Counted from the first letter of the stretch, positions 5,758 through 64,000 are shown. The stretch is 64,000 bases of DNA from Nitrospirota bacterium (GCA_016222905.1 JACRPZ010000017.1:4319-68318), one strand, 5' to 3'. Numbers and translations: made by a program. Notes: a model not told the origin generated them from the letters alone.

Positions 5758-5763
5758 TAAATA

Positions 5764-6042
5764 ATGATAAGGTCTTTCAGGCACAAAGGTCTTGAAAAAT
5801 ATTTCTATGATGGAGATAAAAAAGGAATTAACGTTCAGCATGCGAACAGGCTTGGACGAATTCTTGATCGTTTAGACGCTTCTATATCCCCTCAGGATAT
5901 GAATTTGCCCGGTTTTAAATTACATGAGCTTAAAGGGAAAGAAAAAAGCGTCTGGGCAGTCTGGGTGAGTGGTAATTGGCGAGTAACGTTTAAATTTCAT
6001 GGAAACGATGCAATACTCGTTGATTACCGTGATTACCACTAA
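5764..6042 (+). CDS. higB: HigB-type toxin (RelE/ParE superfamily, plasmid-maintenance killer protein)
   Basis: 92 aa. MIRSFRHKGLEKYFYDG...WRVTFKF is the characteristic HigB signature. Confidence 0.85.
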   Translation: MIRSFRHKGLEKYFYDGDKKGINVQHANRLGRILDRLDASISPQDMNLPGFKLHELKGKEKSVWAVWVSGNWRVTFKFHGNDAILVDYRDYH

Positions 6043-6061
6043 TTTGAGAGGAGGATTAAGT

Positions 6062-6352
6062 ATGACTGGAAAAAGAAAACCCGTTCATCCCGGAGAAGTT
6101 TTGAGTGAAGATGTTATTAAGCCTTTGGGACTTACGGTAACTGAAGCTGCAATGAAGCTGGGAGTTGCCAGAAAAACATTGTCTACCTTATTGAATGGCA
6201 AAGCATCATTAAGTCCTGACATGGCGGTAAGAATAGCAAAAGCAACTAATACATCTCCGGAGAGTTGGTTATATATGCAGGCAAAGTTGGACATCTGGAT
6301 TGTAGCCAGGAAATTACCAAAAGTTCAAGAGCTTAAAGCAATCGCTGTATAA
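6062..6352 (+). CDS. higA: HigA antitoxin (XRE-type HTH)
   Basis: HPGEVLSEDVIKPLGLTVTEAAMKLGVARKTLSTLLNGK is the HigA HTH. AGGAGG RBS sits 8 nt upstream. Immediately follows higB. Confidence 0.85.
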   Translation: MTGKRKPVHPGEVLSEDVIKPLGLTVTEAAMKLGVARKTLSTLLNGKASLSPDMAVRIAKATNTSPESWLYMQAKLDIWIVARKLPKVQELKAIAV

Positions 6353-6480: not shown

Positions 6481-6618
6481 CGTTCAGGTATGAAATAAAT
6501 GGATGCAGGCTTGTCTATTGCGTTCCATCTGATAGCGAAACGGACACGAACGTCTTTAACCCCGAAGAAGGACGATGGCGATGACATATGAAGAAGGTTT
6601 TCGGTATACTCATGGATT

Positions 6619-9006
6619 ATGGACGAACAGACCCTCCGCGTTCTTGAATTCGATAAGATACTCAGGATGGCTGCCGGCTTTGCGGTGACGGTCCCAGGCA
6701 GCGAGCTTGTCAGGAAAACAGCGCCGCTGAAGACCGCCGGCTATGCAAGGCAACGGATAAACCTCATTTCAGAGTGCAGGAGATTCGTCTCCGAAGGAAA
6801 GCATTTCGGGATTGAGCATTTTGACGATCTCTCATCATTTTTCCGAAGGGTAAGACCGGCTGATTCCGTGCTCATCCCCATGGATCTGAGATCATTCCTG
6901 CCGATCCTCTATTCCGCTTTAAACTTAAGAATGCTGGGCGAAGATTCGGAATATCAGGGCATAGGCGCTATCGCGTCTACACTCTCAACCCATCCGGAGA
7001 TAATGAAGGCGATTGAGCGCTCTATAGACTGGGACGGAGAGATCAGTGACAGCGCTAGCCCTGAGCTCTCTTCCATAAGACGGGCGATCCGGTCATGTGA
7101 AACCAAGATAAAAACTCTCCTTGAAGGGATTCTGAAACAGGAGGACCTCCAGCAGCACCTTCAGGACTTCTATCTTGCCGAACGTAACAACCGATGGGTC
7201 GTCCCCGTAAAGACAGACTCCAAAGGCAGCGTGCCCGGGATTGTCCATGACATCTCAAATACGGGAGAGACGGTCTATGTTGAGCCTTACGCGATCCAGC
7301 ACCTTGGAAATGAGCTCGAATCCCACAGGGCGGAAGAGAAGCTCGAGGAGTATAGGATACTGAGGAGTCTCTGCTCACTCATAAGAGAACACCTCAAAGC
7401 AATTGAAGATGATTATCGTATTGTCGCTGAGATCGACGCTCTTCAGGCGATTGCAGGATTTTCCGACCAGATGGGCATGTCCGCTCCTGAAATTAATGAA
7501 GAGGGATACGTGCGCATCATTCACGGACGGCACCCGCTTTTGTGGAAGACACTCAGGAGGGAGAAACGTGAAAACGACCTCGTCCCGCTCGACCTGGAAT
7601 TGGGGAGGGGACATTCCTGCATGGTCATTACCGGTTCGAATGCGGGCGGGAAGACAGTCGCTCTTAAGACGATCGGCGTGCTCTGTCTCATGGCCCTTTG
7701 CGGTATGCATACGCCCTCGGATTCCGGTACGACATTCCCGTTCCTTAAGCGCGTCTTTGCCGACATCGGGGACGACCAGTCCATAGAGCAAAACCTATCG
7801 ACCTTCTCTGCCCACATCAGGCGTATTTCGGATATCGTAAAGCGGAGCGGAAGCGGCACTATGATCATTATCGATGAGCTGGGAACAGGTACATCCCCTG
7901 AAGAGGGCGGCGCTCTCTCCTGCGCCATCCTGCGAAAGATCAGGGCACTCGGCGCCATATCGGCCGTATCCACCCATCTCGGCACCCTCAAGGTATTTGC
8001 CCATTCGGAACCCGGCATGATAAACAGCGCCATGGAGATGGCGGCGGTAGTTGTAAGCGGCAAACCGACACATAAACCTACATATAAACTGGTAGTCGGT
8101 GAACCGGGAACCTCTCATGCCTTTGAGATAGCCGGTTTGCTCGGACTGCCTGATGAGATTATTAAAGAGGCACGGGCCTTTATTACTGAAGAAGACGCGG
8201 CTGTCGAATCGCTCATTTCAGAGCTGAAGAAGAGGACGGTGGAATTAAACATGAGACTGAAAGAGGTGGAAACGATGAGGTCAGAGGCTGAACATCTACG
8301 GCTGTCCATGGCGCAAGAACTCTCACGGCTCAAGATCCTGGAGAAAGAGACTCACGCTGAAGCCTTGAAGGAGGCGGAGGAGTTTTTGCAGAAGACAAAG
8401 AGAGAGGCGAGGGATATCGTCGATGCGATGAAGCGGGCCAAACTTGAGGAGGCGCAAGAGATGGTTAAAGGGCTTGATAAGATAAGCGATGAAGTCGCGA
8501 CCGCCAGCAGGCAATATCTCCCTGATAAGAAGAGACTCACATATGTGCGCACAGGACAGCATGTCTTCGTTCATATTCTCGGCAAAACAGGCGTGGTCCG
8601 GACTGTCAACGAGAAGTCCAAAAGATGCCAGGTGCTCGTTGAAGGCAGAGAGATCGCGGTTCCATTTAAAGAGCTTTCTGAAGTTGAACCTGACATCACT
8701 GCCAGCGAGAAGTCTGATGACACAGGCAAAGAAAGGCTGTCTCTTTCCAAGCCCGAGCTCTTGCATCTTCCGACCGAACTGAACCTTATCGGCCAGCGTG
8801 TAGACCCCTCTCTCTCAAAAATAGAACGCTTCCTTAATGACGCCTCAATGGCAGGGGCGGCGCAGGTAAAGATAATTCACGGATACGGGACCGGCATCCT
8901 TTCCAGAGCTGTAAGGGATTACCTGAAAGACCACCCGCTGGTTGAAAGTTTCAGAAAAGGCAATGAAGAAGAAGGCGGAAATGCGGTCACAATAGTCTTG
9001 CTGTAG
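6619..9006 (+). CDS. mutS2: Endonuclease MutS2 (MutS family with a C-terminal Smr domain)
   Basis: 795 aa. Walker A ITGSNAGGKTVALKT and DELGTGT. C-terminal Smr domain (LIGQRVDPSL...IIHGYGTGILSRAV). Confidence 0.9.
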   Translation: MDEQTLRVLEFDKILRMAAGFAVTVPGSELVRKTAPLKTAGYARQRINLISECRRFVSEGKHFGIEHFDDLSSFFRRVRPADSVLIPMDLRSFLPILYSALNLRMLGEDSEYQGIGAIASTLSTHPEIMKAIERSIDWDGEISDSASPELSSIRRAIRSCETKIKTLLEGILKQEDLQQHLQDFYLAERNNRWVVPVKTDSKGSVPGIVHDISNTGETVYVEPYAIQHLGNELESHRAEEKLEEYRILRSLCSLIREHLKAIEDDYRIVAEIDALQAIAGFSDQMGMSAPEINEEGYVRIIHGRHPLLWKTLRREKRENDLVPLDLELGRGHSCMVITGSNAGGKTVALKTIGVLCLMALCGMHTPSDSGTTFPFLKRVFADIGDDQSIEQNLSTFSAHIRRISDIVKRSGSGTMIIIDELGTGTSPEEGGALSCAILRKIRALGAISAVSTHLGTLKVFAHSEPGMINSAMEMAAVVVSGKPTHKPTYKLVVGEPGTSHAFEIAGLLGLPDEIIKEARAFITEEDAAVESLISELKKRTVELNMRLKEVETMRSEAEHLRLSMAQELSRLKILEKETHAEALKEAEEFLQKTKREARDIVDAMKRAKLEEAQEMVKGLDKISDEVATASRQYLPDKKRLTYVRTGQHVFVHILGKTGVVRTVNEKSKRCQVLVEGREIAVPFKELSEVEPDITASEKSDDTGKERLSLSKPELLHLPTELNLIGQRVDPSLSKIERFLNDASMAGAAQVKIIHGYGTGILSRAVRDYLKDHPLVESFRKGNEEEGGNAVTIVLL

Positions 9007-9159: not shown

Positions 9160-9209
9160 GGCATCAGATGAAGATAGAAGATTAGGGATATTTCTGCTAA
9201 AATCTCCTC
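9160..9209 (+). repeat. Second copy of the VOC 3' end (cagatgaagatagaagattag) fused to the native ABC 5' UTR
   Basis: 9164..9184 is identical to 5708..5728, the last codons and stop of the VOC gene. Confidence 0.75.
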
Positions 9210-20284: not shown

Positions 20285-20361
20285 AAATAGCTTGTTGTGA
20301 CGCGCGCAAGGGGGAGCATTAGCCGCTCCCCCTGAATTCCTTGGTCACCGGAGGATTTTCA

Positions 20362-21132: not shown

Positions 21133-21149
21133 AGTATAAAAAGAAAAAA

Positions 21150-21250
21150 ATTAACCACAGAGAACACTGAGGTTACAGAGAGAGACTTAAAAATCTTTAA
21201 AAAATATTTTATTTTTTTCTCTGTGTACTCTGTGACCTCTGTGGTGAGAA
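21150..21250. promoter_or_regulatory. Imperfect inverted repeat (ccacagagaacactgaggttacagagag / ctctgtgtactctgtgacctctgtgg) around an AT-rich spacer, between the two ku genes
   Basis: Read directly from the sequence. Could be an attenuator, terminator or operator. Confidence 0.3.
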
Positions 21251-21253
21251 TTT

Positions 21254-22051: not shown

Positions 22052-22968
22052 ACAGAAAAGTTGTTGAAGCTGCCGGGAAAAGACTTTCCTTGTCGAACCT
22101 GAAAAAGGACCTCTATCCCTCCTATGGTTTCACGAAGGCCCAAGTCCTTGATTACTACCGCAAGATAGCGGACTTCATCCTGCCGCATTTGAAAGACCGG
22201 GCGCTGACCTTAAAGCGCTACCCGGACGGAACGGAAAAGGATTACTTTTTCGAGAAGCGCTGTCCTGTGCATCGTCCAGCCTGGGTGAAAACAGCAGAGG
22301 TGCATCATAAAGAAGTGCGCTTGACAGCCTGCCTTGTCAACGATCTCGAAACGCTCATATGGGTAGAGAATCTTGCGTCACTTGAGCTGCATGTGCCTCT
22401 GGCAAGGGCCGGCTCCCCTAAGACGCCCGATTCCATAGTTTTTGATCTTGATCCAGGCGATAAGGCAGACATTCTGGATTGCTCGAAGGTAGCCATGATA
22501 CTTAGAGACCTGCTCTCCCAAATGAAGCTTGCAAGCTATCTAAAGACCTCAGGCAAAAAAGGACTCCACGTATATGTCCCATTGAACCGCAAAGAGGCGA
22601 CCTTTGAGGAGACCAAGAAATTTTCTAAAGCCGTGGCAGAAGTCCTGCAGCGCAACTATCCTGAACTGGTCACCGCAAAAATGACGAAGGAAGAGCGGAC
22701 AAAGAGGGTCTTCATCAACTGGTCTCAGAACGACCCCTCAAAGACAATGATCTGCGTATACTCACTTCGCGCAGGTGAAAAACCGGTCGTCTCGTTCCCT
22801 CTTGAATGGGAGGAACTGGAAATGCTGGCTAAAAAGGGTGATCCTAAAAAGTTCAGGATCCTGCATTCGGAGGCTGTGAGCAGGTTAGAGAAAAAAGGCG
22901 ACCTTTTCCGGGAACTTCTCACTAAAAAACAGAAGCTGCCGTTAGGCAGCTCTGATACATTGAGGTAA
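22048..22968 (+). CDS. ligD: LigD polymerase/primase domain protein (stand-alone NHEJ polymerase)
   Basis: KRLSLSNLKKDLYPSYGFTKAQVLDYYRKIADFILPHLKDRALTLKRYPDG is the classic LigD Pol-domain N-terminus. 4-bp ATGA overlap with ku. Confidence 0.85.
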   Translation: MNRKVVEAAGKRLSLSNLKKDLYPSYGFTKAQVLDYYRKIADFILPHLKDRALTLKRYPDGTEKDYFFEKRCPVHRPAWVKTAEVHHKEVRLTACLVNDLETLIWVENLASLELHVPLARAGSPKTPDSIVFDLDPGDKADILDCSKVAMILRDLLSQMKLASYLKTSGKKGLHVYVPLNRKEATFEETKKFSKAVAEVLQRNYPELVTAKMTKEERTKRVFINWSQNDPSKTMICVYSLRAGEKPVVSFPLEWEELEMLAKKGDPKKFRILHSEAVSRLEKKGDLFRELLTKKQKLPLGSSDTLR

Positions 22969-22974
22969 ACGCAT

Positions 22975-23244
22975 ATGTGCAGAAACATCAAGACCCTCTT
23001 CAACTTCGAACCGCCCGTGACCGACGACGAGATACGCGAGGCCGCGCTACAATTTGTGAGAAAAGTAAGCGGATTTCACAAGCCGTCGAAGGCCAACGAA
23101 GTTACATTCCTTGAGACTGTTGAAGAGATAGCTGCAGCTTCCAAAAAACTTCTTAGCTCGCTTGAGACGAACGCGCCGCCAAAGGACCGCGCGGAAGAGG
23201 CTGCCAAGGCGCGGGCACGCGCTGCAAAGAAGTTTTCAAGGTAA
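22975..23244 (+). CDS. Small conserved protein, probably DUF2277 family
   Basis: 89 aa. MCRNIKTLFNFEPPVTDDEIREAALQFVRKVSGF resembles the DUF2277 N-terminus. Confidence 0.5.
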   Translation: MCRNIKTLFNFEPPVTDDEIREAALQFVRKVSGFHKPSKANEVTFLETVEEIAAASKKLLSSLETNAPPKDRAEEAAKARARAAKKFSR

Positions 23245-23245
23245 C

Positions 23246-24829
23246 ATGGGATTAAGAGAATACAAAACCAAACGGAAATTCGGGAAAACGCCGGAGCCTG
23301 AGCCGAAGGAACGCACTGAAGGAGACCAACTCATTTTTGTCGTGCATAAGCACGCGGCGCGAAACCTCCATTATGACCTTAGGCTTAAGATGGATGGTGT
23401 TCTCAAGAGCTGGGCTGTGCCGAAGGGGCCTTCGCTGGATCCTTCTATAAAAAGGCTCGCCATGATGGTTGAAGACCACCCGTTTGATTACAAAGATTTT
23501 GAAGGCGTCATACCTGAGGGTAATTACGGAGCCGGGAGCGTGATCATCTGGGACAGGGGATTTTATCGTCATCCTTCAGTAAAAGACAAAAAGGAAAGTG
23601 AAAAGCTTCTCAGGGACGGATTAAAAAAGGGCGACCTGAAGTTTGTGCTCAATGGAAAAAAGCTTCAGGGAGAATTCGCCCTTGTGAGGATGCGGAAAGA
23701 TGAGAAGTCATGGCTGCTTATTAAGAAAAAAGACCGGCATGCAAGTGAAGTATCCATTTTGAAAGAGAACCGTTCCGCAGTATCGGGTAAGACCCTGGAG
23801 GATGTTGCCGAAGCCGGGCCGAGGGAATCTTTCAAACAAAAGAAAGTGAAACAGATACGCCTGCGTGAAGCTCTGGAGGATGAAGACTTGAAGGATGCAC
23901 CGGTTGGCCCGATGCCGCACAATATAAAACCTATGCTTGCGACCCTGGTCAAAAAACCGTTCGATCATCCGGACTGGATCTTTGAGATGAAATGGGACGG
24001 ATACCGGGCCATTGCCGAGATCCGGGATGGTGATGTTTCGATTTATTCCCGCAACCGGATATCATTCACGCAAAAGTTTCTTCCCATTACCGATGCACTG
24101 CGGAAACTCGGATTTGATGCTCTTCTGGACGGAGAGATCGTTGTTGTTAATGATCAGGGACATCCTGATTTCGAGATGCTGCAGAATTATCAAAAATCAG
24201 GAAGCGGTCATCTGCTCTATTACGTCTTTGATCTCCTTCACTTCCGGGAACATGATCTGACGGGCTTGCCACTGCTCAGGAGAAAAGAACTCCTGAAAAA
24301 AATCCTCCCGTCATCCCCAAAAATAAAATTCAGCGATCACGTATTGAAAGAGGGCATTCTATTTTTCAATGTCGTCAGGGAAAAAGGACTTGAGGGGATG
24401 ATCGCCAAGCATTCTCAAAGCGCGTACCAAGCGGGTAAAAGAAGCAGGCAGTGGCTGAAGGTGAAGGCGCGGCTCACGCAGGAGTGCGTGATCGCGGGGT
24501 TCACGGAACCTGGAGGCGGCAGAAAATATTTCGGTTCTCTTGTCCTAAGCATGTATGATGAGGACGAGTTGAAATACATCGGTCATTCAGGAGGCGGGTT
24601 CGAGGAAAAAGATCTAAAGGTAATATTCAATAAATTGAAGCCGCTGATCCAAAAAAAATGCCCCTTTAAGATTGAGCCTGAGACCAATACCCCTGTCACA
24701 TGGGTAAAGCCGGAACTCGTCTGCGAGGTCACTTTCACAGGCTGGACTGAAGACGGCATCATGAGGCAGCCCGTTTTTCTGCGGCTGCGCGAGGATAAAC
24801 CCGCTCGCGAAGTTGTGAAGGAGAATTGA
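23246..24829 (+). CDS. ligD: LigD 3'-phosphoesterase domain fused to an ATP-dependent DNA ligase domain
   Basis: HYDLRLKMDGVLKSWAVPKGPSLDP is the phosphoesterase domain. KxDG motif EMKWDGYRAI in the ligase domain. Starts 2 bp after the previous gene. Confidence 0.85.
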   Translation: MGLREYKTKRKFGKTPEPEPKERTEGDQLIFVVHKHAARNLHYDLRLKMDGVLKSWAVPKGPSLDPSIKRLAMMVEDHPFDYKDFEGVIPEGNYGAGSVIIWDRGFYRHPSVKDKKESEKLLRDGLKKGDLKFVLNGKKLQGEFALVRMRKDEKSWLLIKKKDRHASEVSILKENRSAVSGKTLEDVAEAGPRESFKQKKVKQIRLREALEDEDLKDAPVGPMPHNIKPMLATLVKKPFDHPDWIFEMKWDGYRAIAEIRDGDVSIYSRNRISFTQKFLPITDALRKLGFDALLDGEIVVVNDQGHPDFEMLQNYQKSGSGHLLYYVFDLLHFREHDLTGLPLLRRKELLKKILPSSPKIKFSDHVLKEGILFFNVVREKGLEGMIAKHSQSAYQAGKRSRQWLKVKARLTQECVIAGFTEPGGGRKYFGSLVLSMYDEDELKYIGHSGGGFEEKDLKVIFNKLKPLIQKKCPFKIEPETNTPVTWVKPELVCEVTFTGWTEDGIMRQPVFLRLREDKPAREVVKEN

Positions 24830-36656: not shown

Positions 36657-38294
36657 TTAGATCTCGCAAACCATGCTGCCTAACTCAGTTGAAAAGACAT
36701 CATAGTTAACCGAATAATCAATAGGGCACTCTATAACAACCACCTTCTTCAATGCAAAAGCTTTTTTTAGTATGCCGCCTAAATCATCTCCTCTGTTCAC
36801 TTTGATGCCTTCTGCTCCGTAGCTCTTCGCATATGCTGCAAAGTCAGGGTTTCCATAATCAAGACCAAAATCAGGAAATCCCATAGCCTTCTGTTTCCAC
36901 TTTATGAAACCGAATGCGTTGTCATTTAATAACAGTACGACTATCGGTATTTTATACCTTATCGCCGTCTCCAATTCCTGCGAGTTCATCATGAAACCGC
37001 CGTCGCCGCATACAGCTAAAACCTTCTTTTCCGGGTTCAGCATCTTTGCAGCTATCCCGGCAGGAAGACCGGCGCCCATAGTTGCCAGGGCATTATCAAG
37101 CAGAAGGGTATTCGGCATGTAAGTCTTGTACAGCCTTGCGAACCATAGCTTATAAATTCCGTTGTCCAGAGTTAGGATGTCATCTCTTGAGAGCGTATCT
37201 CTGACTATGTGGACCACCTCCTGCGGCAAAAGCGGATATCGTTTCTCGTAACCTTCATTGATCTTCTTATCTATCAGCTCCCGCGTCTTTTTAAAAGCAG
37301 GGTATTCGGATTTAGCGTCAATCTTCTCAGTCATTATTTTCAGGGAGTGAGATATGTCCCCGATCAACTCTATATCAGGATCAAAGTATCTGTCTGTTTC
37401 AGCCGGTATAAAATCAATATTCAGGATCTTATTATCGAGATGCTCGTTCCATATAAAAGGAGGATATTCCACAATGCTGTAGCCTATGGTGATTATCAGG
37501 TCTGCCCTGTCCATTCCGCAATTCACATAATCGTGTTTGTGGATGCCGGTCGCAAAGAGGCTCTGCTCCGAATCATCAGGAAGAGCGCCCTTGCCCATCT
37601 GTGTATGAACAACATATATGCCGGACTTATTAACAAAGTCAGAGAGAGCCTTTGTCGCAGACCCTCTGCAAGCCCCTGCAGAGACAATGATCAAAGGATA
37701 TTCAGCCTCCTTTATCAGCTTCATAGCCGCATCAATTGTTTCAGGGTCTGGAAATGACTTACCCATCTCCCCTTTTCTCTGGATCTCAGCATCTGTTTGT
37801 GAGCCTGCAATATCTTCAGGAAGCTCAATATGCACTGCCCCGGGACGCTCGCTCTCGGCAATCTTGAACGCCTCCCTGACAATAGTAGGAACAGAATTCG
37901 GGTCGGCTATAGAGACCGCCCGTTTGGTTATCGGTTTCATCAGGCTTATCACATCTATAAGTTGAAAAAGCGCCTGCCAGTTGTCCCTGACAGCCTTCTG
38001 TCCGGAGATAGAGACCACAGGCGCGCCGATAAGCTGGGCATGGGCTATGCCGGTCACAAGATTGGTTGCGCCAGGGCCGAGGGTTGAGAAGCATACACCG
38101 GCCTTTCCTGTCAGCCTTCCGTATGTCGCGGCCATAAACGCGGCAGCCTGCTCGTGCCTTGTGATAATCAGCTTTATACTCTTTGAAGTTCTTAGAGATT
38201 CAAGGAGATCGAGGTTCTCTTCCCCGGGCAGCCCGAAGATATATTCCACCCCTTCCTCTTCCAATTGCTTCACTAAGATGTCAGAAGCCTTCAT
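36657..38294 (-). CDS. Thiamine-pyrophosphate enzyme, acetolactate synthase large-subunit-like
   Basis: 545 aa. N-terminal TPP-pyrimidine domain, central domain, C-terminal GDG...N TPP-binding motif (VCGDGGFMMNSQELET). Confidence 0.85.
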   Translation of the reverse strand: MKASDILVKQLEEEGVEYIFGLPGEENLDLLESLRTSKSIKLIITRHEQAAAFMAATYGRLTGKAGVCFSTLGPGATNLVTGIAHAQLIGAPVVSISGQKAVRDNWQALFQLIDVISLMKPITKRAVSIADPNSVPTIVREAFKIAESERPGAVHIELPEDIAGSQTDAEIQRKGEMGKSFPDPETIDAAMKLIKEAEYPLIIVSAGACRGSATKALSDFVNKSGIYVVHTQMGKGALPDDSEQSLFATGIHKHDYVNCGMDRADLIITIGYSIVEYPPFIWNEHLDNKILNIDFIPAETDRYFDPDIELIGDISHSLKIMTEKIDAKSEYPAFKKTRELIDKKINEGYEKRYPLLPQEVVHIVRDTLSRDDILTLDNGIYKLWFARLYKTYMPNTLLLDNALATMGAGLPAGIAAKMLNPEKKVLAVCGDGGFMMNSQELETAIRYKIPIVVLLLNDNAFGFIKWKQKAMGFPDFGLDYGNPDFAAYAKSYGAEGIKVNRGDDLGGILKKAFALKKVVVIECPIDYSVNYDVFSTELGSMVCEI

Positions 38295-38554: not shown

Positions 38555-39157
38555 ATGGATGCTCATAAAGAAGTTCAAGAAGCCATAATTAATTTAGAAG
38601 CAAAATTAAATATTCGAAAAGGATTTTTTGACACTCTCTTAAAAGAAGATGACTGGTCTTTTGTTATTAAATCTCATGCGTTGTTAGAGTCAGTAATTTC
38701 AAGTTTGCTTACAAACCATTTTGATCATGAATGCCTTATTGATATATTCTCGAGATTAGAACTGGGAAACAAAAAGTATGGTAAAATTGCATTCATTAAA
38801 GCACTTGATATGCTTAATAGTGATGAACGACGATTTATTTCTGCTTTTTCTGAGTTGCGCAATTTCTTAATACACAATGTATCTAATGTTGATTTTAATT
38901 TTACTAACTATATAACTACGCTTGATTCAAACCAAAAGAAAGAATTTATCAATTCATATGGTTATTGTTACTTAACAGAAGATGATAAGGGAAAACCAAA
39001 AGTAGATCATCGTGAGAAGATTTTATCCGACCCCAAAAAAACTATTTGGTTAAGTCTTAAATATATACTTGCCATTATTAGTCTTACTATAGATACAATA
39101 AGATTGAGAATACAAACTGAAATGTTTAAGAAAAAAACTGCTGAACTACTAAAATAA
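38555..39157 (+). CDS. Hypothetical alpha-helical protein with an Rx4H (ELRNFLIHN) motif; candidate HEPN-like domain
   Basis: 200 aa. AT-rich islet. RNFLIH fits the HEPN Rx4-6H consensus. Possible C-terminal TM (IWLSLKYILAIISLTI). Confidence 0.45.
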   Translation: MDAHKEVQEAIINLEAKLNIRKGFFDTLLKEDDWSFVIKSHALLESVISSLLTNHFDHECLIDIFSRLELGNKKYGKIAFIKALDMLNSDERRFISAFSELRNFLIHNVSNVDFNFTNYITTLDSNQKKEFINSYGYCYLTEDDKGKPKVDHREKILSDPKKTIWLSLKYILAIISLTIDTIRLRIQTEMFKKKTAELLK

Positions 39158-39272
39158 CTGCATCAGATTTTATGAACTGTTGCCCAAATGATAAACACCT
39201 TTCGACAAGCCACACAGTTTACTTACATACAAAAGCCGATTTTCAGTATTAAATCTTTTAGGTTGATTTTAC

Positions 39273-40367
39273 TTGAACTTTCCTTTAACGGGTGTTATTT
39301 TTATTGCAGGAGCGGATAGCGTGAGCGAACAAAAAAATACAACTCAAAAATGCTATAAGGTTGTTTGTTTTCTTTTATGCCTCTTTGCTTTTTCTTGTGA
39401 GGAAAGCCCTCAGAAGATAATAGAAAAGGCGAAAAAATCAGTTGTTACTATAAAAACGCCAACTGGTTCAGGGTCTGGGTTTGTTGCCTCTGCTGACGGC
39501 TTGATTATCACAAATAATCACGTAGTCGAAAACTATGAAACAGTAGAAATTCATTTTCCGGATGGTAGAACTACTGTGGCATCTCCAATAAAAAAAGGAC
39601 TGTCTGTTCTTGATGTTGCATATCTTAAAGTTGACGGTTCAAAGTTCGATTACTTTCCCGTAAATTTTAACTGCAATACAGGGGATGAGGTATATGCTAT
39701 AGGCGCGCCGTTAGGTTTACCAGAGTCTGTCAGCAAGGGGATAATAAGCAATTGTGACCGCACGCTCAAGGGAGTCAAATTTATCCAGACAGATGCGGCT
39801 GTAAATGCAGGAAACAGTGGTGGTCCTTTAATAAACAAGAAGGGCGAGGTAGTTGGCCTTCTTACTTTTAAGATATCTGCCGAGGGAGTTGAGGGCCTTA
39901 ACTTTGCATTATCCCCCGCAGTAGTGTGGGACTTTTATGAAAACAAATTGACCAATCTTGAGGAGGCATTAAAAAAGGAAGTCATTGCGCAAAATAAGGA
40001 AGTTACAGCGCAAAACCCTGCTAATAGAAGCACTTCGGGCGAGCCTTATTGGGTTGTAGTTTATGAAAATGATGATGCTACACATTTATATGATGTTAAT
40101 AATATGAATTTTCTAAACGAGAATATTTTTTACGCTTGGTTTAAGAGTAAATATAAGACACCACAACTAACAACAACAGCCAATAAATTGCAAACGGAAA
40201 GTATGTCCCTATTTAGATATGATTGCACAGAGAGAAGCTTTTTGTGGTTGGAATATGAAGAGGTTTATACTGATGGTAGTACGGGCAAAATGAAGTCGCA
40301 TCTTGATAAAATATATGCTGAACCTGGCTCGGTGCAAATGCTGCTCATGAATCAGGTTTGTAAGTGA
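39273..40367 (+). CDS. Lipoprotein with an N-terminal trypsin-like serine protease (S1) domain and a C-terminal domain of unknown function
   Basis: Catalytic triad context: ITNNHVV (His), TDAAVNAGNSGGPLINKKGEVVGL (Ser). Lipobox LFAFSC. AT-rich. The true start may be the GTG at about 39321. Confidence 0.65.
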   Translation: MNFPLTGVIFIAGADSVSEQKNTTQKCYKVVCFLLCLFAFSCEESPQKIIEKAKKSVVTIKTPTGSGSGFVASADGLIITNNHVVENYETVEIHFPDGRTTVASPIKKGLSVLDVAYLKVDGSKFDYFPVNFNCNTGDEVYAIGAPLGLPESVSKGIISNCDRTLKGVKFIQTDAAVNAGNSGGPLINKKGEVVGLLTFKISAEGVEGLNFALSPAVVWDFYENKLTNLEEALKKEVIAQNKEVTAQNPANRSTSGEPYWVVVYENDDATHLYDVNNMNFLNENIFYAWFKSKYKTPQLTTTANKLQTESMSLFRYDCTERSFLWLEYEEVYTDGSTGKMKSHLDKIYAEPGSVQMLLMNQVCK

Positions 40368-40424
40368 TGAAACCAAAAGTTACTATTGCCTGCATCATAA
40401 TAAAATAGAAAAGTTTTTCTAATC

Positions 40425-40446
40425 TGCGGATTATCTCTTCTTTTCT
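40425..40446 (+). repeat. Direct repeat of the tkt 3' end (gcggattatctcttcttttcta); second copy at 41513..41534
   Basis: 22/22 identical. Flanks a 1.07 kb segment carrying the killer/antidote pair. Confidence 0.8.
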
Positions 40447-40554
40447 ATATCTGCCCTTGCGGCATCTACCCCTTGCAAGAATTTACACAAGAGTCTTGAC
40501 ACTACCAATGCCTGATAGCTGGTTTAATTTTATTAATAGTAAAATAAAAACAGA

Positions 40555-40704
40555 ATGGGTTATGAGGCAAAGAAGACGGAACATTCAGGGGCAAAGAAGG
40601 GTTGCGGCGCTTACTGGGGACGGAAGGCAGACGCTAAAAAGCAGAGCAATCGTAAGCGTCGTGAAATAAATAAAACACTTACTAAGGCAGCAAGAGGAGC
40701 TTAA
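40555..40704 (+). CDS. Possible small basic protein (49 aa, MGYEAKKTEHSGAKKGCGAYWGRKADAKKQSNRKRREINKTLTKAARGA)
   Basis: ATG ORF inside the inserted segment. Weak RBS. Not in the ORF track. Confidence 0.2.
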   Translation: MGYEAKKTEHSGAKKGCGAYWGRKADAKKQSNRKRREINKTLTKAARGA

Positions 40705-40726
40705 CAATGGAGACCACCGTAGGAAT

Positions 40727-41038
40727 TTATGCATAAGCCTGTTTCTGTGCCTTTACAGTAAGCGCCAGACCCATGGCGCTAAGCAGCGTCATCAGGCTTT
40801 TTATTTCAGGGTTGCCGCGCTTTGAAAGCATGCGATAAAGATTCTCCCTGTTTAGATGCGCCTTTTCCGCTATTGCCGATATTCCGCCTTGAGCTTTAGC
40901 AATGTTTCTGAGAGCGAGCAGGAACAATTCACGGTCTCCTTCTTCAATTGCAGCATTTAGATATGCAGCAGCCTCTTTAGGTTTTTTCAGACTTTCAATA
41001 AGGTCTTCCTGATAACTTTTTTTTGGTTTTGCGGCCAT
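40727..41038 (-). CDS. Addiction-module antidote protein (HigA-like HTH antitoxin)
   Basis: 103 aa. LNAAIEEGDRELFLLALRNIAKAQGGISAIAEKAHLNRENLYRMLS is typical of this family. Confidence 0.75.
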   Translation of the reverse strand: MAAKPKKSYQEDLIESLKKPKEAAAYLNAAIEEGDRELFLLALRNIAKAQGGISAIAEKAHLNRENLYRMLSKRGNPEIKSLMTLLSAMGLALTVKAQKQAYA

Positions 41039-41043
41039 TTATA

Positions 41044-41379
41044 TCACCTCCGTTTACGTTTAAATGTTTTCCAGTATTCCTTTGCATGAGCAATATCTTT
41101 ACTTTGTGACGCCTTATCTCCTCCAAGCAGGAGCAAAACAATTGCGTCACCGGCAAATGCATAATACACGCGGTATCCGGGACCAAAATCTATTTTCAAT
41201 TCGTGCATGCCTTCACCAACAGACCTGGCATGCCCAAAGTTTCCGAGACTTATTCGGTCAAGAGCAATGCGAATCTTTGCGCGGGTATGAATATCTTTAA
41301 GTCTCTCAAGCCAGTCCTTAAACGGAATCTTGCCGGTTTCAGTAATGAAATATTCAAGCGTGAAATGGCATGGTTTCAT
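41044..41379 (-). CDS. Addiction-module killer protein (RelE/HigB-like toxin)
   Basis: 111 aa. FKDWLERLKD...RIALDRISLGNFGHARSVGEGMHELKIDFGPGYRVYYAFAGDAIVLLLLGGDK is the family signature. 5 bp upstream of the antidote gene. Confidence 0.8.
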   Translation of the reverse strand: MKPCHFTLEYFITETGKIPFKDWLERLKDIHTRAKIRIALDRISLGNFGHARSVGEGMHELKIDFGPGYRVYYAFAGDAIVLLLLGGDKASQSKDIAHAKEYWKTFKRKRR

Positions 41380-41518
41380 CGAGCTTATAATAGCTTATAA
41401 GCTACATATTGTCAAGAGAACGAGAATGGTAAATAAATCTATTTTGTAAAATCAGCAAGAAAAAAAGATGACAAGGGTAATGCCTTAAAAGTTCATTTAA
41501 CATTAAGAATTAAGCGGA

Positions 41519-43579
41519 TTATCTCTTCTTTTCTAACTCTTCCTTGGCAGCAGCGACTATCCTCTCAACAGTAAAGCCGAAATTCTTTTGAAGATCTTTA
41601 AAGGGCGCTGAGGCTCCGAACCTGTGCATGCCGATGATCTGCCTGTTGCCGACATACCGTTCCCATCCAAATGTTGATGCCTCTTCAACCGCAACACGGG
41701 CAATGACAGAAGGTGGAAGGACGCTGTCGCGGTAGACCTGATCTTGCTCTTCAAATAGCTCCCATGAAGGCATGCTTACAATACGAGCATTTATTCCTTC
41801 TCTCTTGAGCTCTTCAAAGGCCTCGATACATAGCGAGACTTCGCTTCCTGTTGCGATAAGTATAATATCTGGCTTATTATTCTCTGCGTCAGCCAGCACA
41901 TACGCCCCCTTAGCGAGCCCCGAAGCAGGCGCATATTTTGCGCGGTCGAGCGTGGGTATGGATTGTCTTGACAGCATAAGGGCTGCGGGCCTGTCACGGA
42001 ACTGCATGATCACTCTCCACGCTTCAACAACTTCATTGGCATCTGCAGGTCGCAATGTAATGAGGCCGGGCATTGCCCGTAATGAGGCAAGATGTTCTAT
42101 CGGCTGATGTGTGGGGCCGTCTTCGCCGAGGCTGATTGAGTCATGAGTAAAGATATAGATAACCGGAAGCTCCATCAGCGCGCCCAGCCGTATCGCAGGC
42201 CGCGCGTAATCGCTGAAGATGAGGAATGTCGCACCATAAGGGCGGATATTGGATAAAGCCATGCCGTTAAGTATGCCTGCCATAGAATGCTCACGAACTC
42301 CGAAGTGCATATTACGTCCTCCCGGATTTTCCGCATTGAGATCCCCGGTGCCTTCAAAAGTAAGCAGGGTTTTTGTTGAGGGGGCAAGGTCAGCCGAACC
42401 GCCTATAAGCCATGGGACATTTTTGGCTATAGCGTTAAGCACCTTACCTGAAGATACGCGGGTGGCTGTGCCTTTTGCGTCAGCCGGAAAGACCGGCAGG
42501 TCTTTATCCCACCCTTCGGGTAACTGCCTGCGCTGCATCATATATAATTGATCGGTGAGATCAGGATATTTTCTGCTGTACTCATCAAACTTTTCCGACC
42601 ATGCTTTGTAAAGCTCTGCGCCTCGTTTGCCCAAGCCTGAACGAAGATGCTCTCGCACTTCATCGGGAACGAGAAACTTTGCGTCCTCAGGCCAGCCGAA
42701 ATTCCGCTTGGCCGATCTTACCTCATCTTCTCCAAGCGGCTCGCCGTGCGCTGACGCGGTGTCCTGTTTATTCGGCGCGCCGAATGCGATATGACTTTTG
42801 ACAATTATTATTGTAGGCCTGTCGTTAGTTTTTTTAAATAATGTTAATGCATCCGCAATGCCTGTCAGATCATTGGCATCATTAACATCTATCACGTTCC
42901 AATGGTAGCCTTTAAAGCGTGTTGCAACATCTTCGCTGAATGCCAGAGCAGTGCCGCCTTCTATCGTGATCTTATTATCATCATATATCCAGCAGAGATT
43001 TGAGAGTTTAAGATGTCCGGCGATGGATGCGGCCTCTCCTGAAACCCCTTCCATCATATCACCGTCGCTGCAAAGCGCATAAACATCATGATCAAAGAGC
43101 TCAAAGCCGGGGCGGTTGAAGCGCGCTGCCATCCATCTTCCGGCAATCGCCATACCCACGCTGTTTGCCGCGCCTTGTCCTAATGGGCCTGTGGTTGTCT
43201 CAACCCCTGTTGCCAATCCATGTTCAGGATGTCCGGGGGTTTTGCTGTGAAGCTGGCGGAAGTTTTTAATATCATCAAGCTCGACCGAGAGCTTATCAAG
43301 TATCTTGCCGTCATCATCCGCTCTCTTCACATTGTAGAGATGGAGTATGGAATAAAGAAGCATTGAGGCGTGCCCCATGGAGAGTACAAAACGGTCGCGG
43401 TTTAGCCATAGCGGATTTTCAGGGTCAAAGCGGAGAAAATGCTGCCATAGAGTATATGCCACAGGAGCCATCGCCATTGGCGTGCCCGGATGGCCTGAGT
43501 TCGCCTGCTGAACAGCATCCATAGAGAGGGTGCGGATGGTGTTGATGCAGAGAATGTCAAGCCGGTTCTTGTCTGTCAT
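41519..43579 (-). CDS. tkt: Transketolase
   Basis: 686 aa. ANSGHPGTPMAMAP, the GDG TPP motif CSDGDMMEGVS, HDSISLGEDGPTHQPIE. Confidence 0.95.
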   Translation of the reverse strand: MTDKNRLDILCINTIRTLSMDAVQQANSGHPGTPMAMAPVAYTLWQHFLRFDPENPLWLNRDRFVLSMGHASMLLYSILHLYNVKRADDDGKILDKLSVELDDIKNFRQLHSKTPGHPEHGLATGVETTTGPLGQGAANSVGMAIAGRWMAARFNRPGFELFDHDVYALCSDGDMMEGVSGEAASIAGHLKLSNLCWIYDDNKITIEGGTALAFSEDVATRFKGYHWNVIDVNDANDLTGIADALTLFKKTNDRPTIIIVKSHIAFGAPNKQDTASAHGEPLGEDEVRSAKRNFGWPEDAKFLVPDEVREHLRSGLGKRGAELYKAWSEKFDEYSRKYPDLTDQLYMMQRRQLPEGWDKDLPVFPADAKGTATRVSSGKVLNAIAKNVPWLIGGSADLAPSTKTLLTFEGTGDLNAENPGGRNMHFGVREHSMAGILNGMALSNIRPYGATFLIFSDYARPAIRLGALMELPVIYIFTHDSISLGEDGPTHQPIEHLASLRAMPGLITLRPADANEVVEAWRVIMQFRDRPAALMLSRQSIPTLDRAKYAPASGLAKGAYVLADAENNKPDIILIATGSEVSLCIEAFEELKREGINARIVSMPSWELFEEQDQVYRDSVLPPSVIARVAVEEASTFGWERYVGNRQIIGMHRFGASAPFKDLQKNFGFTVERIVAAAKEELEKKR

Positions 43580-43643: not shown

Positions 43644-44027
43644 TTACTTCCCCTCCCTTGAGGGGAGGGATTGAGGGGCGGGTGTCCTATAAAGCCTCTC
43701 CCTTATTGCTTCAAGAACTCCGCTTGTATTAGTCAAAACCTCAGTATCCCAAAAACGCACAACAGTGTAGCCCTCTTTTTCAAGCCAGGCATCTCTTTGC
43801 CTGTCTTTCAGAATTTCGTCCGGCAAAGCATGCTGACCGCCATCCAATTCAATAATTAGCTTTCTTTCAAGGCAAACAAAATCGGCGATATATTGTCCAA
43901 TAGGGTGCTGACGTCTAAACTTCATACCTTCAAAGCGGCCCGCCCGTAAACGGCTCCATAATAGCTGCTCCACATCCGTTGATCTTTTTCTGAGTCCTTT
44001 TGCAAGATACGTTAACCCTTTTGCCAT
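43644..44027 (-). CDS. DUF559 endonuclease-domain protein (Vsr-like fold)
   Basis: LLWSRLRAGRFEGMKFRRQHPIGQYIADFVC...IIELDGGQH...DRQRDAWLEKEGYTVVRFWDTEV. Probable start MAKGL at 44027. Sits between tkt and tal. Confidence 0.75.
   Translation of the reverse strand: MAKGLTYLAKGLRKRSTDVEQLLWSRLRAGRFEGMKFRRQHPIGQYIADFVCLERKLIIELDGGQHALPDEILKDRQRDAWLEKEGYTVVRFWDTEVLTNTSGVLEAIRERLYRTPAPQSLPSREGK
43648..43684. repeat. GC-rich hairpin element (cccctccc-ttga-ggggaggg plus attgaggggcggg)
   Basis: Member of a dispersed family, in opposite orientation to the copy at 44037..44073. Confidence 0.6.
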
Positions 44028-44036
44028 TGGTTTAAT

Positions 44037-44073
44037 CACCCTCTCCCTACCCTCTCCCCTCAAGGGAGAGGGA
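44037..44073. repeat. GC-rich hairpin element (ctctccc-ctcaa-gggagag)
   Basis: Same family. Flanks the other side of the DUF559 gene. Confidence 0.6.
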
Positions 44074-62121: not shown

Positions 62122-64000
62122 TCATTGGTCCCCATGACACAGCGTGTTGTTAAAGCACCCGGTCGTTCCGGGATTTGAAGTGTGACACTGGGCGCAGACA
62201 GCCGCATTCCCCTGATTAGTTGTTGTATGTTCGTATGTTCCTCCCGGCAGCCATGAAGAGGGATGCGGTGCGGGTATACCGTGACATGATTCACATGCAA
62301 TCCCCGAAGAACCGCCGCCAAAATTCTCCCCGTGGCAGCTTTCGCAGTAGAAGAATCCTGAGGTTGCTCCGGGAGCGGCCTTGGCCGTCGAGCCGTGGAC
62401 TGTTGGAGTGGGCCAGCCGTCCGGATGCACATTCACCGCACCATGACACAGCGTGCTGTTAAAGCACCCGGGTGTTCCGGGATTTGAAGTGTGGCACTGG
62501 GCGCAGACAGCCGCATTCCCCTGATTAGTTGTTGTATGTACGTATTTTCCTCCCGGCAGCCACGATGAGGGATGCGGCGCGAATATGCCATGACATGATT
62601 TACACGCAATCCCCGAAGAACCGCCGCCAAAATTCTCCCCGTGGCAGCTCTCGCAGTAGAAGAATCCTGAGGTTGCTCCGGGAGCGGCCTTGGCCGTCGA
62701 GCCGTGGACTGTTGGAGTGGGCCAGTTGTCGAGGTGCACACCCACCGCACTGTGACAGAGCGTGTTGTTAAAGCACCCGGGTGTTCCAGGATTGGTGTTT
62801 CTGTGGCACTGGGCACATACAGATGCATTTCCAATATCTGTTGTTGTGTGGACAAAGGCATCGCCGGGCAGCCAGGCTGAAGGATGGGGCGCGGCTATGC
62901 CATGACATGATTCACATGCAATCTCTGCAGATCCGCCTCCAAAGCTTGTCCCGTGACAGTTCTCGCAGTAGAAAAATCCCGATGATGATCCTGGAGCAGC
63001 TTTAGCCACTGGGCCGTGGACTGTTGGAACGGGCCAGTTGTCGGGATGCACACCCACCGCACTGTGACAGAGCGTGCTGTTAAAGCAGCCCGGAGGAGTT
63101 CCGTCCGGAGCAGGCACAAAAGGAGGTAGAAGCGCCTTTGCATCCGCAGGCAGATTGTTTTGGTGAAAATGGCATTGATTGCATACAGGCGCATTGCCGG
63201 TATCAGCCGTAGTATGCGTGTACGTATCATCTGGCAGCCAGGCTGAAGGATGGGGTGCGGCTATGCCATGGCACGATTGACATGCAACCCCTGAACCGTC
63301 ACCCGAGAAATCAACTGCATGGCATACCTGACAATAAGTGAAACCGCTGGTACCTCCCGGCGCATTCTTCGCCACCGGTCCGTGTATTGTCGGGGCACTC
63401 CAGCCCGGAGGATGCTGGCCCAGCACTCCATGACAAAGGGTGCTGTTAAAGCAGCCCGGAGGAGTTCCATCAGGCGCCGGCGTAAACGGTGGAAGTTTAG
63501 CAGCAGCGTCTTCAGGCAACTTGTTCCTGTGTAAGTGGCAATTCGCACAGACAGGCGCATTGCCGGGATCGGTCGTAGTATGCATATTCGTATCATCTGG
63601 CAGCCAGGCATTAGGATGTGGAGACGGCTCTGGTCCATGGCAGCCTATGAAGCAGGTTGGACCAAATACCCCTCCTCCCAAAAATGGTACATTCGGGGTG
63701 CCATGGCAAACCTGGCAGAATGAGAAGCCGCTATCATCTCCCGGAGTCATCTTTGCGCGTGCTCCGTGAGATGCCGGACTATTCCATGCATCTGTATCGC
63801 AATGACCGATTGGTGCCCCGCTGGATGAATTATGGCAACTGGCGTTAAAGCAGCTTACCTTGGAAATGCCTCCCCTTAAGACAGGGGCACTACCGTGACA
63901 TTCTTCACACTTACCAGGATTTGAGAGGAAGGTATCGATGAATTCTCCTCCATGTACCGCAATCCAGTTGTCAGAATGCTTGCCTGTATCCGGGTCTGTA
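62122..64000 (-). CDS. Multiheme c-type cytochrome built from tandem repeated modules (5' end lies beyond the window)
   Basis: At least 14 CxxCH motifs (CQVCHG, CANCHLH, CESCHGI, CAQCHTS, and others) plus recurring CFN[NS]TLCH. The frame stays open to position 64000 with further CxxCH motifs. The C-terminal modules are near-identical. Confidence 0.8.
   Translation of the reverse strand, partial: TDPDTGKHSDNWIAVHGGEFIDTFLSNPGKCEECHGSAPVLRGGISKVSCFNASCHNSSSGAPIGHCDTDAWNSPASHGARAKMTPGDDSGFSFCQVCHGTPNVPFLGGGVFGPTCFIGCHGPEPSPHPNAWLPDDTNMHTTTDPGNAPVCANCHLHRNKLPEDAAAKLPPFTPAPDGTPPGCFNSTLCHGVLGQHPPGWSAPTIHGPVAKNAPGGTSGFTYCQVCHAVDFSGDGSGVACQSCHGIAAPHPSAWLPDDTYTHTTADTGNAPVCNQCHFHQNNLPADAKALLPPFVPAPDGTPPGCFNSTLCHSAVGVHPDNWPVPTVHGPVAKAAPGSSSGFFYCENCHGTSFGGGSAEIACESCHGIAAPHPSAWLPGDAFVHTTTDIGNASVCAQCHRNTNPGTPGCFNNTLCHSAVGVHLDNWPTPTVHGSTAKAAPGATSGFFYCESCHGENFGGGSSGIACKSCHGIFAPHPSSWLPGGKYVHTTTNQGNAAVCAQCHTSNPGTPGCFNSTLCHGAVNVHPDGWPTPTVHGSTAKAAPGATSGFFYCESCHGENFGGGSSGIACESCHGIPAPHPSSWLPGGTYEHTTTNQGNAAVCAQCHTSNPGTTGCFNNTLCHGDQ
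62135..63480. repeat. Tandem intragenic repeats of about 306-366 bp (five units, the two 3'-most almost identical)
   Basis: atgacacagcgtg(t/c)tgttaaagcacccgg recurs at 62135, 62441 and about 62748, with more diverged copies at about 63060 and about 63428. Confidence 0.8.

Follow-up and report, generated by a model that had tools for sequence, protein, structure and literature searches.

How chromosomal toxin–antitoxin (TA) modules move when no mobility gene accompanies them is a long-standing loose end. A 64,000-nucleotide (nt) stretch of DNA from a Nitrospirota bacterium (GCA_016222905.1, JACRPZ010000017.1:4319-68318; called the window below and numbered from its first letter) poses the question in compact form: directly behind the transketolase gene, tkt, lies a predicted HigB/HigA-type TA module, in an interval bracketed by two exact copies of a 22-nt sequence, GCGGATTATCTCTTCTTTTCTA, that belongs to the 3' end of tkt. 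A reading made from the sequence alone took this interval for one 1.07-kb unit that had inserted with a 22-bp target-site duplication. Our analysis leads to a different answer. The explanation that we prefer, with confidence somewhat better than even, is that the copy distal to tkt is a relic left when host recombination duplicated the target, and that cassettes were afterwards exchanged through homology in the flanks. It is favored by the failure to find a dedicated enzyme, by cassette ends that differ, by variable repeat lengths, by relic cores that decay, by a mosaic tkt gene, and by a Ku/LigD set in the same stretch of DNA.

The repeat and the interval that it brackets

The 22-mer occurs exactly twice in the window, on the plus strand at 40426-40447 and 41514-41535, at a distance of 1088 nt. 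The perfect repeat of the tkt 3' end, stop codon included, that the sequence-only reading had described was thus borne out, with both copies one base further to the right. Allowing up to three mismatches still gave only two copies, and none of 100 dinucleotide-preserving shuffles contained any match, so the repeat is not a product of chance. Copy 2, at tkt itself, comprises the last five tkt codons, the stop codon and 5 nt (TCCGC).

Two possible objections, that the repeat might be missing from independent assemblies and that it might be a general terminator sequence, were checked. Contigs from assemblies of two other sequencing runs, SRR12113397 and SRR12113394, contain both copies and match the window at 100.000% identity along 7587 and 4280 nt; on sequence grounds these contigs represent the same population as the window, and they exclude a misassembly of the repeat. 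An exact scan of metagenome and species-representative genome collections with GARAAGAAGAGATAATCCGC, the 20-base, tkt-proximal part of the 22-mer, returned only three unrelated chance matches. Together with the lack of a third copy in the window, this indicates that the 22-mer is not a general or common terminator motif. Since DNA-pattern scans of the tkt-tail core gave only chance matches, the related loci discussed below (L numbers) were obtained through exact-protein look-ups. The features of the interval, from tkt to the relic, are as follows.

41519..43579, minus strand: tkt, transketolase of 686 amino acids (aa), the target gene with the duplicated 3' end; ends in ...EELEKKR and a stop; Pfam Transketolase_N, Transket_pyr and Transketolase_C_1
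41514..41557, minus strand: repeat copy 2, the functional tkt 3' end; exact 22-mer at 41514-41535; cassette junction after TAATCCGC in the tkt sense
41419..41513, minus strand: leader of 95 nt between tkt and the higBA promoter, outside the HigBA block common to other contexts
40727..41418, minus strand: predicted HigB/HigA-type TA module, from promoter to higA stop
41044..41379, minus strand: predicted toxin (HigB-type); Pfam Gp49/PF05973, 28.4 against a cut-off of 23.9; TIGR02683, 117.7 bits against 62.85, E 2.3e-34
40727..41038, minus strand: predicted antidote (HigA-type); TIGR02684, 70.2 bits against a cut-off of 53.7, E 1.2e-19; PF21716, 1.1e-17
40707..40717, plus strand: remnant of the start of a hicB-like gene, 11 nt, ATGGAGACCAC; apparent breakpoint at which HigBA displaced hicB-hicA
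40555..40704, plus strand: gene for a 49-aa basic protein, an orphan here and elsewhere the first gene of a 49aa-63aa (HicB-like)-HicA operon
40470..40554, plus strand: sequence in front of the 49-aa gene, including a -35-like TTGACA (40496-40501); orthologous to the same region in L023
40426..40469, minus strand: repeat copy 1, the tkt 3'-end relic; exact 22-mer at 40426-40447
40405..40448, no strand assigned: hairpin of the relic 22-mer and ancestral flank; outer stem of 9 bp (40405-40413/40440-40448), inner stem TAATC/GATTA (5 bp), loop of 4 nt

The repeat is longer than its perfect core. A repeat search in the window extended it to 44 nt at 82% identity (40426-40469 against 41514-41557), and the similarity past the 22-mer lies on the tkt-coding side only: 14 of 22 positions agree there (40448-40469 against 41536-41557) before the match falls to background (11 of 60), and on the side away from the tkt coding sequence the copies diverge at once. 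Mismatches number 0 of 22 in the 22-mer and 8 of 22 in the adjoining 22 nt (Fisher p = 0.0036). Given this one-sided similarity, copy 1 is best described as a decayed duplicate of the tkt 3' end, at least 44 nt long; in the tkt frame it reads VDAARADIEKKR and a stop, and the tkt tail itself reads VAAAKEELEKKR and a stop.

In the tkt sense, the 22-mer of copy 1 forms the 5' arm and the loop of the hairpin at 40405-40448, and the position that corresponds to the cassette junction lies inside the apical loop. The hairpin has a predicted folding energy of -12.3 kcal/mol (z -5.25 on the plus strand and -3.47 on the minus strand), none of 200 shuffles folded as well, and it is followed in the tkt sense by a U-tract, TTTTATTAT. 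This succession of stem and U-tract suggests a terminator, and the hairpin is probably the former intrinsic terminator of tkt. A scan of 40200-41700 against Rfam gave no match (best rox2, E 0.94). Copy 2 has lost the ability to fold in this way (z +1.3). The 22-nt identity can be accounted for if copy 2 is constrained by its coding function and copy 1 by its place in the stem. That selection alone, through the coding sequence on one side and a terminator arm still in use on the other, has kept the two copies identical seems to us evenly balanced between true and false. The distribution of mismatches and the z score of the hairpin both speak for it, as does the orthologous relic in L023, in which the hairpin is lost (z +1.97) and three substitutions have accumulated inside the 22-mer. 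Compensatory changes in the stem could be looked for among only three orthologous copies. On this view the perfect match would be silent on the age and manner of the insertion. Selection complements rather than replaces the explanation by host recombination, as a duplication event is still required to produce copy 1.

The TA module itself is unremarkable. It appears to be an ordinary predicted HigB/HigA pair of the HI1419/HI1420 type (TIGR02683/TIGR02684) and shares with that family the order of toxin first, the 5 nt to the antidote gene on the same strand, and a palindrome over the promoter. The promoter has TTGACA at 41415-41410 and, after 17 nt, TATTAT at 41392-41387 (11 of 12 in a promoter scan), and the perfect palindrome TAGCTTATAAGCTA (41391-41404) overlaps it. 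Homologues at 77-92% aa identity are common in metagenome bins of Nitrospirota and Thermodesulfovibrionales. The sequence-only reading had proposed looking for the same cassette with other flanks, and such cases exist: the sequence bounded by the -35 box and the higA stop (40727-41418) is 84-86% identical at the nucleotide level to HigBA in the unrelated loci L027-L035, which lie between znuABC and nadC (L027) or beside a gene for a CbiA-family (ParA-like) ATPase (L028-L035). The leader at 41419-41513 matches neither the other parts of the window nor any of the loci retrieved, even when words of 9 nt are used.

On the other side of the TA module the homology is to a different system. From 40 nt upstream of the 49-aa gene through 13 nt past its stop, including ATGGAGACCAC, the window matches 49aa-hicB-hicA operons, and the block 40515-40717 is 78-94% identical to such operons elsewhere. 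Beyond ATGGAGACCAC, L007, L023 and L024 run on into a 63-aa hicB-like gene and hicA, whereas the window runs into the 3' end of higA on the other strand. This abrupt switch suggests that HigBA displaced hicB-hicA, and the interval between the repeats is a mosaic of two modules that have had separate histories. By blastn, 319 nt that take in the 49-aa gene, the sequence before it, the relic and the flank match L023 at 87% identity, and the cassette still has its hicB-hicA in L023, in the independently assembled L024 and in L007. Orthologues of the relic, the 49-aa gene and the flank stand in an array with hicB-hicA; the relic therefore probably predates the arrival of HigBA, in which case the repeat does not bracket one single inserted unit. 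The sequence-only reading was right that the segment holds a killer, an antidote and a 49-aa open reading frame (ORF), and it was mistaken in treating them as one unit.

The model of a single insertion, with staggered cleavage and fill-in in a transposition-like or replicative process, has in its favor the exact 22-mer on both sides with no other copy, and the fact that nothing was lost from tkt. We consider it very improbable. A two-module mosaic with a hicB remnant in the middle is not what it predicts, and neither are a relic, 49-aa gene and flank orthologous to an array with hicBA in place of higBA, a duplicate of at least 44 nt, or relics of 28 to ~200 nt at the same site in relatives; terminal inverted repeats and a transposase are missing as well.

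The 49-aa ORF is a real gene, as judged from a conserved family of 83 protein clusters (57-100% identity, with an almost invariant core). The family has no match in Pfam or NCBIfam, and the same holds for the 63-aa HicB-like protein, which is too short for a typical DNA-binding domain. The operon of 49-aa gene, 63-aa HicB-like gene and HicA gene was seen in L007, L012-L021 and L023-L026; in L007 the 49-aa gene is frameshifted. For the 49-aa protein, AlphaFold2 predicts that the N-terminus is disordered and that residues 19-47 form a single long helix (mean predicted local distance difference test score 71). It may be a third, regulatory component of its HicAB systems. In Geobacter sp. OR-1 (L022), the 49-aa gene lies beside a ribbon-helix-helix/PemK pair, between cas6e and cas1. 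No repeats of at least 16 nt surround the 49-aa cassette in that genome or in L025.

The tkt hotspot in related genomes

Relatives of the locus were found from tkt proteins at 85-90% identity, traced to their contigs. Three of them, L003, L005 and L006, have no insert: tkt overlaps the gene for a thiamine diphosphate (TPP)-dependent enzyme, the C-terminus of tkt is different and longer, and the flank and peptidase gene of the window are absent. In the window and L004 an islet separates tkt from the TPP-enzyme gene, and the sequences become homologous again 14 nt ahead of the ATG of the latter. On this side of the relic the window contains the following features.

40368-40425: conserved flank within the islet, which follows the last relic in L004 too
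39273..40367: gene for a trypsin-like peptidase within the islet, which follows the last relic in L004 too
38555..39157: gene for a 200-aa protein within the islet, no Pfam or NCBIfam match
38555..40425, plus strand: remainder of the islet that separates tkt from the TPP-enzyme gene, low G+C (28-38%)
36657..38294, minus strand: gene for the TPP-dependent enzyme, 545 aa, the conserved right-hand neighbor of the hotspot, which adjoins and overlaps tkt in L003, L005 and L006
AGATTAGAAAAAC: the sequence that tkt would adjoin directly at an empty site

The search for an empty site that the sequence-only reading had proposed thus has a divided outcome: relatives free of an insert exist, and a pre-insertion allele that joins tkt, an intact hairpin and the peptidase gene was not among the relatives sampled.

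The cassette directly behind tkt differs in each islet-bearing lineage. L004 has a ParE-like/HTH_17 cassette followed by HicA/HicB-MerR, L007 has HicA/63aa/49aa, and L008 has a relic of an FtsX gene with a DUF4258/MqsA-like pair. Copies of the tkt tail separate such cassettes. L004 has three: the tkt 3' end proper, a stump of 28 nt behind the first cassette and, behind the second, an 84-nt copy with 95% identity, next to which comes the flank known from the window. L023 and L024 have at least three tkt-tail relics between cassettes, of 75-84, ~200 and 60 nt. The relics start at varying positions in tkt and share a fixed 3' end, all of them reaching TAATCCGC; those of L023 have two to three substitutions in the core of the repeat (AAGATATAATCTGC and AAAAAAAGAGATAAACCGC). 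The L023 contig contains four pairs of 99-nt perfect self-repeats at offsets of ~200 nt and a run of N, and its arrangement was used only where L024 agrees. These self-repeats (e.g., at 2230-2328/2432-2530 and 2794-2892/3003-3101 of the reverse strand) are probably an artifact of assembly or scaffolding.

The junctions are shared in the same way. HigBA, the HicA-type cassette (L007/L023) and the FtsX-relic/DUF4258-type cassette (L008/L023) join tkt at the identical nucleotide, 5 nt past the stop codon, with CCGC/TTAATTC, CCGC/CAAGAAG and CCGC/AAGTCG in the tkt sense (the slash marks the junction); the ParE-like cassette of L004 joins tkt 11 nt further on. In L008 (4476-4742) and on the reverse strand of L023 (from ~383), the 3' end of an FtsX permease gene opens the cassette (Pfam FtsX 3.4e-11, profile positions 38-116 of 120), which suggests that cassettes carry relics of their former target or host genes.

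The target gene also has a composite history. In sliding-window comparisons, nt 600-900 of tkt in the window are 87-90% identical to L003 and 74-79% identical to L004, L007 and L008; over nt 900-1200 the ranking is reversed, and the window is closest to L004 and L007. This switch of the nearest relative along the gene points to homologous recombination among these lineages and makes tkt a recombinational mosaic.

Upstream of tkt, a gene for a DUF559 protein (Vsr-like endonuclease fold) lies at 43644-44063, between tal and tkt, with 35-nt imperfect inverted repeats at 43650-43684 and 44037-44071. The tal-tkt spacers of L004, L005 and L007 lack this gene, which therefore resembles a small selfish insertion in its own right.

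Insertion scars at other targets

Similar scars occur at genes unrelated to tkt. In L028, L029 and L031, a HigBA module with 83% aa identity to that of the window lies between two copies of the 111-nt 3' end of the vapC gene upstream of it (95% identity; 1667-1777 and 2541-2651 in L031), and both boundaries are sharp. In L029, vapB and the 5' part of vapC have been lost with both repeat copies kept, and a ParE/Phd cassette follows after 82 nt of copy 2. In L012, a repeat of ~110 nt (863-971 and 1622-1728; 82-88% identity) flanks a 49aa-hicB cassette; 42 nt of it come from the very end of a pentapeptide-repeat gene and 67 nt from the sequence downstream of that gene. The orientation of this cassette relative to the target gene is opposite to that in the window. 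In L027, four copies of a purine-rich repeat of ~55-70 nt (at 3499, 3997, 4878 and 5715) separate three cassettes. These are an HTH_3 cassette, a nucleotidyltransferase with a disrupted partner, and HigBA, in an array-like layout.

The window contains a further case, with cargo other than TA genes. At 9165-9185 there is a second copy of the final 21 nt of a glyoxalase gene (5708-5728), and the start of the region of a gene for an ATP-binding cassette (ABC) ATPase (6385-6500; ~115 nt with the ribosome-binding site and the first ~80 nt of the gene) recurs as a frameshifted copy at 9186-9300. A 2.7-kb segment with mutS2 (6619..9006) thus sits between glyoxalase-3'/ABC-5' duplications of ~136 nt. 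Inside one of them is a second TA cassette (5729-6384), with a HigB-like PF05015 gene at 5764..6042 and an HTH_3 antitoxin gene at 5999..6352, inserted exactly after the glyoxalase stop codon (GATTAG/GGAT) with neither duplication nor loss. Within the window itself, the copy at 9165-9200, which has no interruption, stands in for an empty site and shows the insertion to have been clean; no repeats flank this TA pair at 5764-6352. Judging by these sites, long target duplications seem to be an insertion scar of general occurrence in these organisms, and TA cassettes can go in without leaving one.

None of the junctions at vapC, the pentapeptide-repeat gene or the glyoxalase gene has a significant hairpin (z -0.6 to +0.5), so that insertion into a terminator loop is supported at tkt only.

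Small cassettes separated by repeats call to mind an integron-like array, i.e., a cluster of attC sites lacking integron integrases (CALIN), in which the repeats would be attC sites. TA cassettes are typical of chromosomal integrons, and the cassettes here are mostly TA modules of 0.8-1.1 kb that carry their own promoters and stand in line beside a fixed site. The repeats, however, copy the coding 3' end of the neighboring gene and differ from locus to locus. They have no attC structure or consensus: the sequence-only reading had asked whether the 22-mer resembles attC, and it has no R''/R' core, nor do the cassettes start with TTRRRY. The L027 repeat is purine-rich on one strand, which, judged from its sequence, makes an attC-type hairpin unlikely. 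No IntI-like gene was found among the tested window ORFs or in the arrays, and Rfam gave no match. We regard this explanation as scarcely credible. An attC identity of the repeats was rejected from the junction sequences, and the only hairpin is the presumed tkt terminator.

Elsewhere in the window, a multihaem cytochrome gene (62122..63750) contains near-perfect internal repeats (62141-63243, offsets ~309 and 366 nt). Two N6/N4 DNA methylase genes (1178-4195 and 16006-18052) each lie beside a large uncharacterized gene, one of which has a weak DndB match, and may mark restriction-modification or related defense loci.

Proposed routes of insertion and exchange

No transposase or integrase domain was found between the repeat copies or in the ~58 ORFs tested in the 64 kb of genome visible, in agreement with the sequence-only reading; none occurs in the complete tkt-to-TPP interval of L004 either, and no recombinase in any array. 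The ends of the interval have no inverted repeats, and cassette termini differ between contexts. A complete set for non-homologous end joining is encoded at 20341-24829, with two Ku genes, a LigD primase-polymerase gene and a gene for the LigD phosphoesterase and ligase. A transposon or insertion sequence with target-site duplication was rejected: besides the lack of a transposase and of inverted repeats, the duplication has no fixed length, at 22/44, 28, 60, 84 and ~200 nt at tkt and ~110, 111 and ~136 nt elsewhere. The 22-bp target-site duplication proposed by the sequence-only reading is not compatible with the relic of at least 44 nt or with those of 28, 60, 84 and ~200 nt in relatives. 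Of the mechanism that it suggested, site-specific or replicative, what holds is that the 3' end of tkt bears the scar of an insertion, in which a site-specific component may have had a part.

The explanation by host recombination that we prefer has two steps. A TA cassette of the 49aa-hicB-hicA type would first have recombined in directly behind tkt, within the terminator loop, so that the target stretch was duplicated and not deleted. A HigB/HigA module, from promoter to stop, would later have replaced hicB-hicA; of the earlier cassette, 11 nt of hicB and the 49-aa gene, now an orphan, would have remained together with the relic. We infer the order of these events; the anatomy can be read directly from the locus. 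The duplication would have arisen through the cell's own recombination rather than through a transposase or a cassette-borne integrase, along one of two routes. In the first, a circularized fragment carrying a piece of the tkt tail would have entered by a single (Campbell-type) crossover, which would also explain cassettes with foreign relics. In the second, ends would have been joined, or templates switched, at staggered positions on sister chromosomes, and only outcomes of the duplication type would have kept the essential gene intact. Thereafter, tkt, the relics and the conserved flank would have served as portable homology for swapping, stacking and losing cassettes among related genomes, with addictive TA modules as the cargo most likely to be kept after a chance capture.

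Several observations weigh against this explanation: (i) Three different cassettes share one junction nucleotide at tkt, and a fourth joins 11 nt further on. Random end joining does not predict such reuse, which needs a fragile site, such as the hairpin loop, or a specific enzyme. (ii) The motif GAT[AT][AG][TG] (GATWRK) and 4 nt precede the junction at four sites (41513/41514 in the window, 8076 in L004, 1777 in L031 and ~975 in L012), which hints at sequence specificity; in tkt and vapC the hexamer contains the stop codon. The motif was noticed post hoc on three to four sites, with a rough p of ~0.01-0.04, and is kept as a lead only; the junctions that follow the TPP-enzyme gene in the window and L005 lack it, and at the glyoxalase site the junction comes directly after GATTAG, not 4 nt later. 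(iii) Relics B and C of L004 and relic 1 of L023 begin at one common 5' position and lie next to an A/T-rich palindrome of ~25 nt, which is not expected from independent random events. (iv) Only 22 nt of identity are available for a homologous crossover in the window, which would be marginal for RecA. (v) Neither a circular intermediate nor a true pre-insertion allele is among the sampled loci. (vi) The two routes would yield the same product and look alike in sequence. The A/T-rich element beside the three relics (element X) is a candidate recombination site, yet it lies at the position of a promoter UP element. The stretch ATAAT-CCGCAG-ATTAG resembles the inner arms of dif only loosely, by eye, and we make no claim of a dif/Xer site.

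A more novel possibility is a dedicated, trans-acting process of cassette capture in these bacteria. In such a process the chromosome would be broken at a defined point just past a stop codon (at tkt, in the hairpin loop; GAT[AT][AG][TG] and 4 nt precede four junctions), a TA cassette with its promoter would be inserted, and the second strand would be resolved at variable positions upstream. Each capture would then duplicate 20-200 nt of the gene tail and build polar arrays, a functional analogue of integron or CRISPR adaptation without attC/IntI or Cas1. We think this improbable, though less so than either the single insertion or the integron-like array.

A better-known form of site specificity would be that of integrase-less satellites, akin to a cis-mobilizable element (CIME) or a decayed tycheposon, for which a tyrosine or other site-specific recombinase encoded in trans uses the tkt terminator region as attB. 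Circular cassettes would insert directly after TAATCCGC, each leaving an att repeat, and arrays would grow by accretion beside tkt. Three unrelated cassettes do join at an identical nucleotide in an apical loop between the inverted arms TAATC and GATTA, GATWRK and 4 nt recur before four junctions, the arrays are polar with relics between cassettes, and a 5' boundary with its adjacent palindrome is common to three relics. Decayed elements are well known to accumulate at a housekeeping gene's 3' end (PMC5704250), and islands with scattered partial att copies are known (bioRxiv 10.1101/2020.12.28.424599). No recombinase was found, however, among the ~58 ORFs of the window or in any array; the repeats range from 22/44 to ~200 nt instead of sharing one core; the copies are alike upstream of the junction too, which a site-specific system would not require; the relic core mutates freely; and cassette termini are not conserved. 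The same type of scar appears at an unrelated vapC, at a pentapeptide-repeat gene and at the glyoxalase/ABC junction, and the motif is absent at the TPP-downstream junctions and rests on three to four post hoc sites. We rate such satellites as unlikely, but as the most serious of the mechanisms that call for a special enzyme.

Known systems resemble the locus in part. ICESt1 and ICESt3 at fda in Streptococcus thermophilus exemplify CIMEs and tandem accretion at the 3' end of a housekeeping gene (reviewed in PMC5704250), and the stacking beside tkt is similar. CIMEs, in contrast, have attL/attR cores of fixed length and use the integrase of a related element; here lengths vary, cores decay, and no integrase was found in the window or the arrays. 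Of the CIME-type features compared by sequence, one was present, and a conserved att core of defined length was not. In the tycheposon islands of Prochlorococcus (bioRxiv 10.1101/2020.12.28.424599), successive integrations push older cargo inward and leave partial tRNAs, where tkt tails are left here; tycheposons differ in having tyrosine recombinases, replication modules and tRNA targets, none of which is seen here, where the cargo is only ~1 kb.

The locus also behaves like TA-only islets that lack mobile-element genes. The current model, as set out by Belot et al. 2026 (PMC13617665), is that mobile elements deliver such modules, which are then streamlined and spread by homologous recombination at flanking core genes; the exchange through flanking homology proposed above agrees with it. 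Those islets and the minimal mobile elements, such as those of Neisseria (PMC3082526), which are likewise exchanged by recombination in core genes at their flanks, share with our locus varying small TA cassettes between conserved genes and no mobility genes. Recombination in a flanking gene is seen here in the mosaic tkt, and erosion in the frameshifted 49-aa gene of L007 and the truncated vapBC of L029. The difference is that here relics of 22 to ~200 nt from the tail of the upstream gene lie between the cassettes, and several cassettes meet at one junction nucleotide. Term searches of PMC13617665 gave no mention of direct repeats, 'duplication' only for a duplicated TA system, and no description of relics of target tails.

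What this locus contributes to the question of how chromosomal TA modules move is a physical mark left by the insertion itself: relics of the target tail between cassettes, a reused junction in the terminator loop, and relics of earlier hosts within cassettes. Should the pattern not be general, it would still illustrate that a striking perfect repeat can be an old scar, with one copy kept by coding and the other perhaps preserved as an arm of a hairpin. If the pattern is general, such relics could provide a searchable signature of captured genes, could put successive acquisitions within an islet in order, and could help to test end joining by Ku and LigD against Campbell-type insertion and against an unknown enzyme.

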